Notes under the pieces: model-generated | The model's database searches: none | Told to the model about the DNA's origin: nothing | The model's input: the letters and a program-made list of their open reading frames with translations, nothing else | DNA from: Pristiophorus japonicus | Lineage: Eukaryota | DNA: 64,000 bases | Assembly: GCF_044704955.1 (NCBI RefSeq) | Contig: NW_027252824.1 | Location: 496,001-560,000, forward strand | Reading direction: 5' to 3' | Program-made: the position numbers and the translations under genes | Shown: one piece after another, positions 12,501 to 18,500 of the stretch | Layout: each line of letters starts with the position of its first letter | How positions within the stretch are numbered: position 1 is the first letter of the stretch

Positions 12501-15500
12501 CGCAGGTTTGGCCGGCGAGGCTCCTGGGGACGGTGACCGACACGTGGTAGCTCCCGTCGTACTGCACCGCCAGTCCAAAGTCCATCACCAACCTGGTGTG
12601 AGCGCCGCTCAGGTAAACCCGCAATGTCCCGTTGGCGAGAGAGAGGGGCAGGTTCACCCGCAGTCCATTCAGCTGCAACATAAAACAGATTAGACCGAGA
12701 TACAACACGGGAGGAAAGATTTCTTCTGTACCTTAAGTCTTAACAATAAGAACTTGTAAACTTACATTGATACAGCGCCTTTACTGTCCCAAGGCGCTTC
12801 ACAGCAGCGTTACAAAATAAAATTGGACATCGAGCCGCATAAGGAGATATTAGGGACAGCTGAACAAAATCTTCATCAAAGAAGTAGGTTTCAAAGAAAG
12901 TCTTAAAGGAGGAGAGAGAGGCGGAGAGGTTTAGGGAGGGAGTTCCAGAGCTTGGGACCCAGGCAGCTGAAGGCACGGCCGCTGATGGTGGAGCGATAGA
13001 AATCGGGAGGATGCGCAAGAGAGCAGAATTTGGAGGAGCGCAGAGATCTGGGAGGGTTATAGAGGCTGGAGGAGAATACAGAGATAGGGAGGGGTGTAGG
13101 GTCTGGAGGGGTTTAAAGAGATAAGGAGGGATGTAGGGCATGTAGGAGGTTATAGAGATAGGGACGGTGTATGGGCTGGAGGAGGTTACAGCGATAGGGA
13201 GGGGTGTAGGGGCTGGAGGAGGTTACAGAGATAGGGAGGGGAATAGAGATTGGAGGAGGTTACAGAGATGGGGAAGAGTGTAGGGGCTGGAGAAGGTTGC
13301 AGAGATAGGGAGGGGTGCAGGGGCTAGATGAGGTTACAGAGATAGGGAGGGGTGCAGGGGCTTGAGGAGGTTACAGAGATAGGGAGGGGTGTAGGGGCTG
13401 AAGGGGATTACCGAGAAAGGAATGAGTGTATTAATTGCTTTGCCCGTTAGACGTTACGTTACTCAGTTTCCCCTTCCTGCTCCGATTAATTGGGAAGCAA
13501 CAAACTGCAATTAATGCGAACCTGGTCCCTGAACAACACGTGTTTACAACGATAGAAAGTCTAATCAAATGGAGTCTCACCGAATTTTATTCTCGCGTAG
13601 CGTCGAAGGGAAATAATCAGCGGCGAATTTTAAAACATAACATAAGAATTAGGAGCAAGCGGAGGTCATTCGGCCGCTCCAGTCTGCTCAGTTATTCGAT
13701 GAGATCTTGGCTGATCATTGACCTCAACCCCGCTTTACTGCACTGTCCCCATATCCCACGATTCCAATAATATCCAAAAATCTATCGATCTCTGTCTTGA
13801 ATATACTGAAAGACTGAGCCACCACAGCCCTCCGGAGCAGAGAATTGCCAAGATTCACCACCCTCTGAGTGAAGAAATTCCTCCTCATCTCAGTCCTAAA
13901 TGGCTGATCCCTTATCCTGAGACTGTGACCCCTGGTTCTAGACTCCCCAGCCCGAGGGAAACATCCTCCGTGCATCTACCCTGTCAAGCCCTGTTTGAAT
14001 TTTGTATGTTTCAAGAAGATCACCTCTCATTCTACCAAACTCTAGAGAATATCGGCCTAGTCTACTCAATCTCTCCTTGTAGGACAATCCCCCCATCCCA
14101 GGAATCAGTCTGGTGAACATTTGTTTCACTCCCTCTATGACAAGTATATCCTTCCTTAGCTAAGGTGACCCAAACTGTGCACAATACTCCAGGTGCAGTC
14201 TCACCAGGGCCCAATATAATAGCAGTAAGACGTAATTACTCTTGTACTCAAATCCTCCTGTAATAAAGGCCAACACACCATTTGCTTTCTTAATTGCTTG
14301 CTGTACCTGCATGTTAACTTTCAGTGATTTGTGTACAAGGACACCTAGGTTCCTCTGAACACCAACATTTCCCAAGCTCTTATCATTTAAAAAATACTCT
14401 GCTTTACTATTTTTCCTATCAAAATGGATAACTTTACATTTTTCGACATTATATTCTACTTTCCCGCTCACTTTGCTCGTCGAACAGAACTGTTCAACAA
14501 ACTAACTGGAGTTTTGCCCTTTACCCCCTGGGACCTGGAGTCCATTGATCAGAAGGATGGTGCGATTGATTCACAGAAATATCCTGCACAGGTAGAGTCT
14601 ATTTGGCCCATGGACCCAAAGCCAGCCCCCTGAAAGCTGCCTCTGTGATCACCTTGTATTTAACTACTCACTGATCGATTAAAAACGGTTCCTCATAGGG
14701 CGTAAAATTGGCCATAGCGAACCGGCAGCTGGTTTTACACCTCGCCCAATATTCCTTTCCTTTGAACTCAATGCACGTGAAAATCGGACGGGGCGCGTCA
14801 GGGGCGGAAAATTCGATATCGCCCATTTTAGGCCAACAGCAAAAGGTACAGTGAAGCCTCATCTGGAGTGGAGTTTAGGCACAGTGTTGGTTTAGATTGG
14901 CATCAATTCATCTTGTCTTGTCGGTGGCATCTGTTCTCTGGTCTCAGTGTGTTGGCAATCCATATATATAAATACTTCATATACATACATTTATACTTTG
15001 ATGTCCCCTATATATACGATCAAAGAAATTCTCTTCCCTTTTGATATAATTTCTAGGCATCCTCTTTGTTTTGAAGTAACAAATAATCTTTAATAAATTT
15101 GATTACAAAGCCAAGTGTCAATCTTGCTATTCACACCGGTTAAATGTGATAAAACTATCGCGTTGGATCGTTTTTCTTTAGTTCACGTCGGGCACGAATT
15201 CAGATCGTCAATTGCGAATAGAGGTTCCTAGCAAACCCGTTAAGTTCTTCAATGTAAACCGTAAGAAAATCTGGGTGACGTTCTTTCGAAAGACGAGGTG
15301 GGCGGTACTTAAAGAGCTTTTGTGATTTGTTGCATTGATGTTACTGATTCTTGTGGTCTTCAGGTGTAAACCTTCCTGGCGTGCCCGGTGTTCTTGAGCA
15401 GCGGCGTGGCCTGGATCTTCGGCAGGACCCCGCCCTGGGCTATGGTCACCCCACCCAGCGGCTTGTTGAGCTCCTCGTCATTGCGGATGGCGAGCTGCAG

Positions 15501-18500
15501 GTGGCGAGGTGTGATGTGGGTCTTCTTGTTGTCACGGGCCGCTTTGCCGGCCAGCTGGAGGATGGCGGCCAGGTAGACCGGGGCTCCGGCCCCCACCCGC
15601 TCGGCGTAGTGACCCTTGCGCAGCAGGCGGTGGATGCGGCCGAGCGGGAACTGTAGGCCGGCTCGGCAGGAGCGGTTCTTGGACTTGGCGCGCCCTTTGC
15701 CTCCGGTTTTATCGCGGCCCGACATTTTGCTCAATGACCCTCAGCCACTCTTTTTTAATTCAAAATGATCTTTTTATTGATTCCTTAATGCAAAACATAA
15801 AATAAATGTTCCTTGATGTCCTCCCATTTTCATTCCTTTTCCCAACCGCTTAAAGTCAGATGAAAAGTCTTAACCACCAACAATAATGTTATTAATGGGG
15901 ACGTGGATGAGCTGCACAAAGAAACCGATGTATCCCATGATGGCAAATCCAATAGCTGTTGCGCTGGCTTAGAAATTATTTTCTGTCCGGCGTTGTACAT
16001 CTTTTCACAAATCTGATTGAATCCTTTACAAATTGGCGACTGGGCTCCACAAACTGCATTACTTGACCCATTGTGTCCTGCTGTCTCTCTCTCTCGCTCT
16101 CCGCCTGGAAAGCTGTCTCTCTTTTTGTCCAACCCTTTATTGCCAGTAAGCACAGACCAGCCGGTAAACATTGCGATCGACAGAGAGAGAGAGAGAGAGA
16201 GAGCGGGGTGGGGGAAATCAAACGATCCTCTGGTCATCGGTCGGGCCGCCCACTCAGTCCGAGGTCGGGAGGACGATCTTGGCCGGGTCGAAGTAGTTGG
16301 GGGGGAGATGGCGGGCAACCCCTGGGCCTGGCGCTCCTTCAGCTGCCGCTCCGCCTCTCTCCGCGCCCACGGTCGCATCCCGCCAGCAGGCAGATAATGG
16401 ACAAAGACTGATCCCATCACGATCGCCATGGAAATCCCAAAGAAAAACACCAGCCTCATGTTCCACTGAAGCTATGGTAGTCGGGTTTCTTGTCGTACAG
16501 GTTGACCTCGACGGGCGGCGCGTGTCCGTGGCTCACCCCAGCTCCTGGGCGGGGGAAGGGGCCGGGGCCAAGGCCGAGGCGGAGCGGCCGGCGGAGGCCC
16601 AGCGGGGGGCGGCGGTCAGGCCCAGGAGCCGGCGGGAGTAGCGCCTCAGCAGCACGACACCAGCCAGCCGAATACAGTTGACAATCCCCTGGCCCCACCC
16701 ACCCACCCGAAGTTTATTTCCTTCGCTGATACAAAGGCTGGTGGCGGTAAGTTCGGATGTCAAAGACCCACGCTCCTCAACTGAGCACCTCTTAGAATTG
16801 TGATAGGGGAGCTGATGAACTTTTGGAATCAGAGAACGGTCACAGCACAGGAAGCCGCCATTCGGCCCCTCGAGCCCGTGCCGGCTCTCTGCAAGGGCGC
16901 CTCAACCAGTCCCACTCCCCCCGACCCCGGAGCCCGGCACATCTCCCTCCTTCAGGGATGTATCCAACTCCCCTTCTGAAAGCCACGATTGAGTCGGCCT
17001 CCCCCACCCTCTCAGGCAGCGCAGTCCAGATCCTAACAACTCGCTGCGTAAAAACATTTCTCCTCGTGTCGCCTTCTGCCAATCGCCTTAAATCTGTGTC
17101 CTCTGGTTCTCGACCCTTCCACCAATGGGAACAGTTTCTCTTGCTCTACTCTGTCCAGACCGTTCGTGATTTTTAACAGCTCGATCAAATCTCCTCTCAA
17201 CCTTCTCTGCTCCAAGGAGAACAACCCCCGGCTTCTCCAGTCTCTCCGCACGTCACTGAAGCCCCCATCCCCGGGACCATTCTGGTCAATCTCCCTCCCC
17301 ACCCTCTCTAAGGTTGTCACATCGTCCCTAAAGTGCAGGGACCAGAATTGGACACAATCCTCCAGTTATGACCGAACCAGTGTTTTATACGGGTCCATCA
17401 TAATGTCCACACTTTTGTACTCTACGCCTCTGTTTATGAAGCCCAGGACCCCGTAAGCTTGTTTAACCGCTTTCTCAACCTGCCCTGCCACTCACCCACC
17501 CCCCCGCCCCCCCCGGGTCTCTCTGTTCAGGCACCCCCTGTAGGACTGTACCATTTCGTTTACATTGCCTCTCTGACAAAAAAAGCCTCGGTCTTGATAA
17601 ATGAGATTACCTTGACGTTCCCCCGGTTGCCCCTCTCCAGATGTATCTCGTTTCCGTAAACGCGGACAAGGACCTCCGCCGTGACAGACACGGCGCTCTC
17701 CCGCCACCTCTCGTTCTTCACTTCCACTTCGAAGTGGGCCGGCGATTGCACTGCCCCGCACAGCGCGGCCAACACGTAGGAGCAGGTGCCCTGGAAATCG
17801 TAGCGGAGCCCATCGAAGGTGCGGTAGTGAGGGTCCCCGGAGGCCCAGCAGACGGCGGACGCACTGACGCAGCTCGCCCGGCCGCCCGACAGGCCGCAGA
17901 CGTGTTGCGGGCCGCAGGTGGCGTTCACGCAGCGCACCGTGTTGGTGGCTCCGTCGCACCGGCAGAGCCTCCGGCAGCCCTCCGCCCTCCACTCCTCCCC
18001 CGCCGTGCGATAGACGCCATTCTGGAGACACCCGCACTGCGCCAGGGGAACGCAGCCCTCTCCGCTCAGCACAAACCTGTTGTCGCACTGACACCCCTCC
18101 CCACACGGGGTCGGGCAGTCGGACGGTGAACCCAGGTCCGCGCAGGACGCGGGGCAGGTCGATCCACACAGCTCGTAGTGACTGTTCGCCCCGCAGCCCA
18201 TCTCTGAAAAACATAAGGACAACATTCTATACTTCAGTCGCACAACTGATAAGCATTGCTCTGGTCGCTAAGTGCATCAAATCTGTCTTTATCCGTACCT
18301 GGGATGTGGGCGTCGCTGGCGAGGCCGGCATTTATTGCCCATCCCTAATTGCCCCTTGAGCAGGCGTTGGTGAGTCGCCTTCCTCAACTATTGCAGTCCG
18401 TGTGGTGAAGATGCTCCCACAGCGCTGACATTGTGGTGGCGGTTTTGGTACAGAGTGCATCGCTGGGCCCTTTTAGAGGAGCAGTTAAGGGGCAGCCACA

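Follow-up and report, generated by a model that had tools for sequence, protein, structure and literature searches.

Three mRNA copies joined head to tail in an intron of Pristiophorus japonicus share a motif at their seams

The 64,000-nucleotide stretch analysed here (the window) comprises positions 496,001 to 560,000 of contig NW_027252824.1 in the 5.9 Gb genome of Pristiophorus japonicus (G000:C2212:496001-560000). On its minus strand, copies of three unrelated mRNAs, NDUFB11, SEC61G and an H2A variant, follow one another in the same orientation. The chain is located inside an intron that splits the VWD domain of a tandem TIL-VWD-C8 gene, and is encoded on the same strand as its host. A first-pass annotation had described three tandem copies without spacer DNA, and our analysis bears out the arrangement as well as the gene identities, poly(A) signals, A-runs and G positions: AATAAA at 16136-16141, A5 and G16121 at junction 1; AATAAA at 15773-15778, A6 and G15750 at junction 2; ATTAAA at 15089-15094, AAAACAAA and G15064 at junction 3. 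The coordinates of the features are collected in Table 1.

Table 1 Features of the retrocopy chain and its surroundings. Positions are those of the window. LINE, long interspersed nuclear element; TSD, target-site duplication.
Feature	Position	Strand	Basis
NDUFB11 processed pseudogene, 5'-truncated	16127..16668 (5' end uncertain by ~4 nt)	-	Pfam, alignment to spliced parent
Junction 1: A5 + GAG	16119..16126	-	alignment to SEC61G parent
SEC61G processed pseudogene	15757..16120	-	PDB match, alignment to parent exon 1 and last exon
Junction 2: A6 + GAG; the final A + GAG is also in parent H2A (4-nt overlap)	15748..15756	-	parent alignment
H2A-variant processed pseudogene	15073..15751	-	DNA match to C19 parents
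Junction 3: AAAACAAA + GAG; where the chain meets the 3' flank, on the insertion's priming side	15062..15072	-	parent alignment, flank search
3' flank, single-copy	14780..15061	.	genome DNA and protein search, which gave neither a parent gene nor a repeat family
5' flank, single-copy	16669..16825	.	genome search; no significant TSD
LINE 3' fragment, presumably CR1-like; upstream neighbour outside the chain	16826..17573	-	translation
Host-gene exon: TIL, TILa, first half of VWD; donor GT at ~17610	17560..18225	-	Pfam domains
Following host-gene exon: second half of VWD, C8	11980..12732	-	Pfam domains

The NDUFB11 copy matches the Pfam ESSS family (E 2e-23), and its parent on contig C34 has three exons. 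Both parental introns are precisely gone, with exon joins at 16489|16488 and 16380|16379. The first base of the copy corresponds to a position about 8 nt past the A of the parental ATG, leaving it without a 5' untranslated region (UTR) and without a start codon. It contains frameshifts, ends in a stop codon at 16254-16256, and its A-run begins merely 9 nt beyond the AATAAA, at the putative cleavage site. The copy differs from the spliced parent at 44 of 534 positions (8.2%), with 15/136, 7/135 and 10/136 differences at the three codon positions. No second NDUFB11 retrocopy was found in the genome search.

The SEC61G copy was identified by a match to Sec61-gamma in the PDB (E 6e-14). It comprises a 5'UTR, an ATG at 16071, an in-frame stop and a deletion, and the terminal stop codon at 15870-15872, upstream of the AATAAA. 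Exon 1 and the last exon of the parent were located on contig C5, separated by 9.4 kb, and the first and last exon joins (16081|16080 and 15880|15879) are free of introns in the copy. The genome search did not recover the middle, coding exons of the parent, so the age estimate for this copy is based on 162 UTR bases, 13 of which differ (8.0%). A run of 200 N (L042:8054-8253, G000:C5) stands immediately after parental exon 1 of this essential gene. The genome search returned no second SEC61G retrocopy. An open reading frame of 209 aa (15830-16459, minus strand) runs from the NDUFB11 copy across junction 1 into most of the SEC61G copy; SEC61G is out of frame in it, and we take the frame to be due to chance.

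The third copy matches, at the DNA level, two intronless genes on contig C19 that encode a 129-aa H2A variant, each with a TATA box and a poly(A) signal. Because the parents have no introns, intron loss cannot serve as a criterion for this copy. It has an ATG at 15725, a 24-nt in-frame deletion and a stop at 15360-15362, and its 3' end is the same as that of most other H2A copies in the genome. It differs from parent A at 63 of 667 positions (9.4%), and a tree of the 3'UTR places it with this parent (87/85). The usual spacing between TATA box and start is 30 nt, at which 5 of the 16 other H2A copies begin; this count of 16 leaves out the two parents, three loci consisting of coding sequence only (L046-L048), and L050, whose 5' part is duplicated. 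The copy in the chain begins 37 nt from the TATA box, apparently 7 nt inside the main start as judged from this spacing and the five other copies. The C19 genes (L045, L027) combine a stem-loop-like motif with a poly(A) signal and have 16 or more dispersed copies, the older of which carry an additional stretch of ~120-140 nt within the 3'UTR.

In all three copies a poly(A) signal is followed by an A-run that is not in the parent. The parental upstream (promoter) sequence is missing, and frameshifts and stops show decay. The members of the chain are processed pseudogenes, dead copies within an intron. They had been described as three full-length copies, which does not hold for NDUFB11, with its first base past the parental ATG, nor for H2A, with its start at 37 nt from TATA where five other copies have 30.

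All three seams, the join to the 3' flank included, have the form A(n)GAG. In the window, GAG follows 43 of 2034 A-runs of at least three A (~2%), and the chance of three seams sharing one trinucleotide is 8e-4. The match was noticed post hoc and a bias towards G as the first base is possible; since a cap G and purine-rich starts also raise the chance at junction 1, we give the match less weight. The occurrence of the motif at all seams points to target-site DNA between the copies.

The first-pass annotation had instead read the G at each junction as a copied mRNA cap, and had itself named a junction G templated in the parent gene as counting against this. G16121 is opposite a C in the SEC61G parent and hence non-templated, while the AG that follows is templated; it is the only candidate for a cap G. 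Both H2A parents template G15750, which leaves junction 2 without a cap G whichever start is assumed, and G15064 apparently belongs to the flank. A non-templated G at the start, the sign of a full-length copy of a capped mRNA, is therefore possible for SEC61G only, as the H2A base is templated and NDUFB11 has no 5' end. Among the five H2A copies elsewhere that begin at the main start, only one is preceded by a G that a TSD does not explain.

The DNA past G15064 has no parent and no second copy in the genome, and thus behaves as target flank. Neither an empty site nor a paralogous intron was found, as both flanks match only themselves in this genome. A fourth mRNA or a LINE tail after H2A was considered and rejected, because a 30-aa frame and the DNA at this position match only themselves; a likeness to the end of LINE ORF2 was unsupported. 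DNA and protein searches of the 3' flank, which may skip very common words, found no 3' part of a LINE or short interspersed nuclear element (SINE) in the chain; such a part is common in LINE template-switch chimeras, though they can do without it. A single TSD around the whole chain had been expected and was not detected: the best candidates, at about 16692 and 16793, do not exceed what shuffled sequences give (fractions 0.36 and 0.41) and were rejected. Age may have eroded an enclosing duplication.

By our reading, a TSD (9-15 nt, mostly with a leading AA) can be recognised in 6 of the 16 other H2A copies but not in the remaining 10. In five of these six the end of the TSD overlaps the first bases of the copy, and the same is seen in one cyclophilin retrocopy. 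Beyond the frequent leading AA, the other H2A copies have no common target. One old H2A copy (L056:975-2175, G000:C10) lies within a repeat resembling a miniature inverted-repeat transposable element (MITE) with at least 40 copies, where AG/GAG overlaps an AAG-ended target. By analogy, this join can be read as a precedent for junction 2. The locus was also considered as a second chain and rejected, as it is an H2A copy inserted in a MITE-like repeat.

Divergence from the parents is equal for all three copies (44/534, 13/162 and 63/667; chi-square p=0.71, with low power), in agreement with the equal ages expected from the first-pass annotation. A comparison at codon positions 1 and 2 (22/271 vs 13/244, p=0.22) likewise gives no age gradient, again with low power. 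The number of triple stacks expected by chance is 7e-10 to 6e-4 per genome for six parameter pairs (500 to 10,000 retrocopies, effective target of 20-200 bp), which upholds the earlier view that three independent insertions are very unlikely. Retrocopies are scarce in this genome, with one locus for RPL21 and none for TCTP (both lower bounds). One survey gives 14,081 retrocopies across all of its cartilaginous fish genomes (10.64898/2026.06.26.734816). H2A retrocopies far outnumber those of RPL21 and TCTP, an excess suggestive of high expression in the germ line. The RPL21 retrocopy (L082:1400-1645 and 2505-3075, G000:C3) has a local duplicate of its 5' part ~1.1 kb upstream; this pair was rejected as a chain, being a local partial duplication. 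Given the equal divergence, the single NDUFB11 and SEC61G copies found and the tiny expectation for chance triplets, the chain very probably arose in one coordinated insertion episode. To this extent the proposal of one insertion event is supported, while the cap-G evidence, the enclosing TSD and the full length invoked for it fail, two of the three copies being 5'-shortened.

Three spliced or polyadenylated mRNAs were reverse-transcribed at this site; the copies are of the same age within error, and their seams read A(n)GAG. We favour, with a probability of about one half, serial retrotransposition, primed by poly(A), into one target with A(n)GAG on its top strand, leaving short target duplications between the copies. 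The order of copying, the target origin of the GAG and the enzyme are what we infer. A LINE enzyme acting in trans would nick an A-rich target, with H2A being copied first. By its AGAG overlap the H2A cDNA would attach to the overhang of the target and so remake a short A(n)GAG upstream. This remade site, still open or soon nicked again, would prime SEC61G, whose cDNA would join through AG and leave A(n)GAG once more. That motif would in turn prime NDUFB11, which would stop early, the overhang being lost upon sealing. The internal seams would then be short TSDs fused with shrunken poly(A) tails rather than marks of the cap. The TSDs that overlap copy starts in five of six H2A cases, the cyclophilin copy and the AG/GAG join in the MITE-like repeat speak for this scheme, as do the equal ages and the rarity of an extra G before H2A copies that begin at the main start. 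An endonuclease site is described as persisting at the head of an insertion (PMC3783187, citing El-Sawy and Deininger 2005).

Several points weigh against serial priming. The NDUFB11 5' end has neither A(n)GAG nor another TSD, so a target deletion must be assumed there. The non-A part of the proposed TSDs is 1-3 nt, compared to 5-13 nt in the six clear H2A cases. Few letters are informative: the GAG is wholly templated by the parent at junction 2, and one base is non-templated at junction 1. Both SEC61G and H2A are nearly full-length, which jumping from template ends explains more naturally. A mobilising LINE was not found; the L1 ORF1 profile gave no matches, and as its positive control was also silent, this search is uninformative.

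A further reading that we consider rather unlikely is a relay over the target overhang, in which one open intermediate would string unrelated mRNAs without new cleavage. The reverse transcriptase would finish an mRNA and jump to the single-stranded top-strand overhang of the target, and A(n)GAG would be copied into a new oligo-dT end that primes the next poly(A) ribonucleoprotein. If true, the relay would be a general route to multi-gene retro-cassettes, distinct from RNA-to-RNA template switching, with seams stamped with target sequence.

A possible but tentative alternative is continuous reverse transcription with jumps from RNA to RNA, from H2A to the 3' end of SEC61G and on to the 3' end of NDUFB11, in line with the first-pass annotation. 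Here G16121 would be a cap G, the enzyme would have jumped at junction 2 while still 7 nt short of the 5' end, over a single overlapping A, and the flank would carry its GAG by coincidence. Such jumping fits the common orientation, the missing spacers and the equal ages. The truncated copy is the last template, as expected, and the non-templated G16121 precedes a C|AG start-like site. Chimeric retrogenes of two or three parts that arose through template switching by LINEs are known; the tripartite ones compared here are ncRNA-SINE-LINE (the first part a non-coding RNA) in a fungus and B2-U6-L1 in mouse, both ending 3' in a LINE and having a single TSD of 14-16 bp (PMC2104539). These tripartite chimeras resemble our chain in that three RNA copies are fused directly, in one orientation and at one site. 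In contrast to them, our chain consists of three protein-coding mRNAs with their own poly(A) signals, lacks both a LINE part and an enclosing TSD, and repeats a motif at its seams; two human cases from that paper lie outside this comparison. In L1-expressing human cells, same-orientation insertions of two RNAs were attributed to template switching or prior RNA ligation, and most full-length 5' junctions have an extra G (PMC11702581). These insertions likewise join different RNAs at one site, and have 5'-truncated ends with short TSDs or with deletions and microhomology. They are, however, somatic and experimental, comprising nine two-RNA cases and a sole tripartite one from a single mRNA, whereas three mRNAs are fixed in the germ line here.

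Under jumping, the agreement of all three seams in A(n)GAG would be a chance event (~1e-3). Junction 2 without a cap G under either start site, the lack of an enclosing TSD and the rarity of cap G among H2A copies of this genome (1/5) also count against it. We judge the likelihood ratio of target reuse over jumping to be ~30, cut to ~10 for post-hoc selection; these are judgement figures, and the prior favours jumping. Since the tests for a single TSD and for cap G failed, we do not count the chain among the standard template-switch chimeras.

It is improbable that a hot spot took three independent insertions in the course of evolution, each into the A-tail or head TSD of the earlier one. Such insertions would also predict A(n)GAG at every seam, and junction 2 reads TT|AAAA, an L1-type site. 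Alu elements exist in about a million copies, so that stacks of them arise by numbers; here two of three members are the sole copies found of their genes, which requires the repeated insertions to have been linked in time. Alu elements inserted in tandem, at the heads and tails of others, have been described, and our chain resembles them: a surviving endonuclease site at the head can take a second element, giving a head-to-tail stack with target DNA in between (PMC3783187). The few retrocopies both in this genome and in the survey cited above, the low expectation for triplets, the absence of an age gradient and the lack of a common target among other H2A copies beyond the leading AA speak against independent insertions.

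We regard it as equally hard to believe that separate cDNAs were end-joined at a double-strand break, or that the RNAs were ligated before reverse transcription. The absence of a TSD and the seam overlaps of 1-4 nt would agree with this, but the GAG at all seams is left unexplained. For ligation, there is no obvious chemistry by which a capped 5' end could be attached to a 3' end with poly(A), although RNA ligation has been named as a route (PMC11702581). In mouse zygotes, several reverse-transcribed pieces were captured sequentially at one break, with microhomologies of 1-5 nt, which is similar to our chain; unlike here, where each copy is 3'-complete with signal and A-run and all share one orientation, the captured genes in that report have no poly(A) tails (PMC4516963). 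An assembly artefact from concatenated cDNA is practically negligible: the contig is small (number 2212 of 4318), but the copies are 8-9% diverged with frameshifts, stops and deletions, which excludes cDNA contamination, and four DNA runs from one sample, possibly the source sample and hence not independent, contain 80-83% of the sequence words.

The suggestion of a lineage-specific mechanism that concatenates mRNAs is unsupported by our survey of this genome. None of the 16 other H2A copies is chained, and none has a poly(A) signal with an A-run upstream. No chain was seen at 11 loci among cyclophilin, ferritin and RPL21, picked as intronless-looking from 30 + 30 + 3 and including some gene fragments. 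Of 85 frames in the flanks, none matched an mRNA family, with one weak match to RVT_1. A search for a poly(A) signal and A-run followed by a pattern resembling a terminal oligopyrimidine start gave 21 matches compared to 25 in the reversed control, none ribosomal-protein-like by eye. As the sample is small, a chaining rate of a few per cent remains compatible with these results.

The triple retrocopy is real, dead and apparently unique; its members have the properties of processed pseudogenes, and the whole apparently works like a LINE-made chimera. We found no report of a chain of three protein-coding mRNAs in the literature, which was covered only partially for subscription papers and without supplements. 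The locus is a germ-line record of one site that took three protein-coding mRNAs with no relation to one another, in a genome with zero or one retrocopy for most of the genes tested. Should the seams be target duplications, repeated priming at a recreated target end may be the source of some chimeras ascribed to template switching. This bears on how the 5' ends of LINE insertions are attached, and on multi-gene fusions built by retroposition.

The host gene, which we take to be FCGBP-like from its domain order (the domains themselves are from Pfam), extends over window positions 1147-36086 on the minus strand as a tandem VWD-C8-TIL gene in which pairs of exons recur. Near 41036-41425 there is an exon that is presumably NIDO-like. 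The introns in the window are rich in LINEs; two CR1-like fragments bracket the chain, and neither touches it. Further upstream, a CR1-like reverse transcriptase frame (30366-32108, minus strand) is free of stops over 580 aa, indicating a fairly young LINE copy.

Matches to the ferritin domain, in both orientations, form a very large cluster at G000:C4:127.8-133.4 Mb (e.g. L124-L126, L128-L145). It contains most of the 150 scored ferritin matches (of 1033 candidates), each covering approximately profile positions 20-72. The cluster may represent ferritin genes hugely expanded in tandem, or else a repeat with a ferritin exon.

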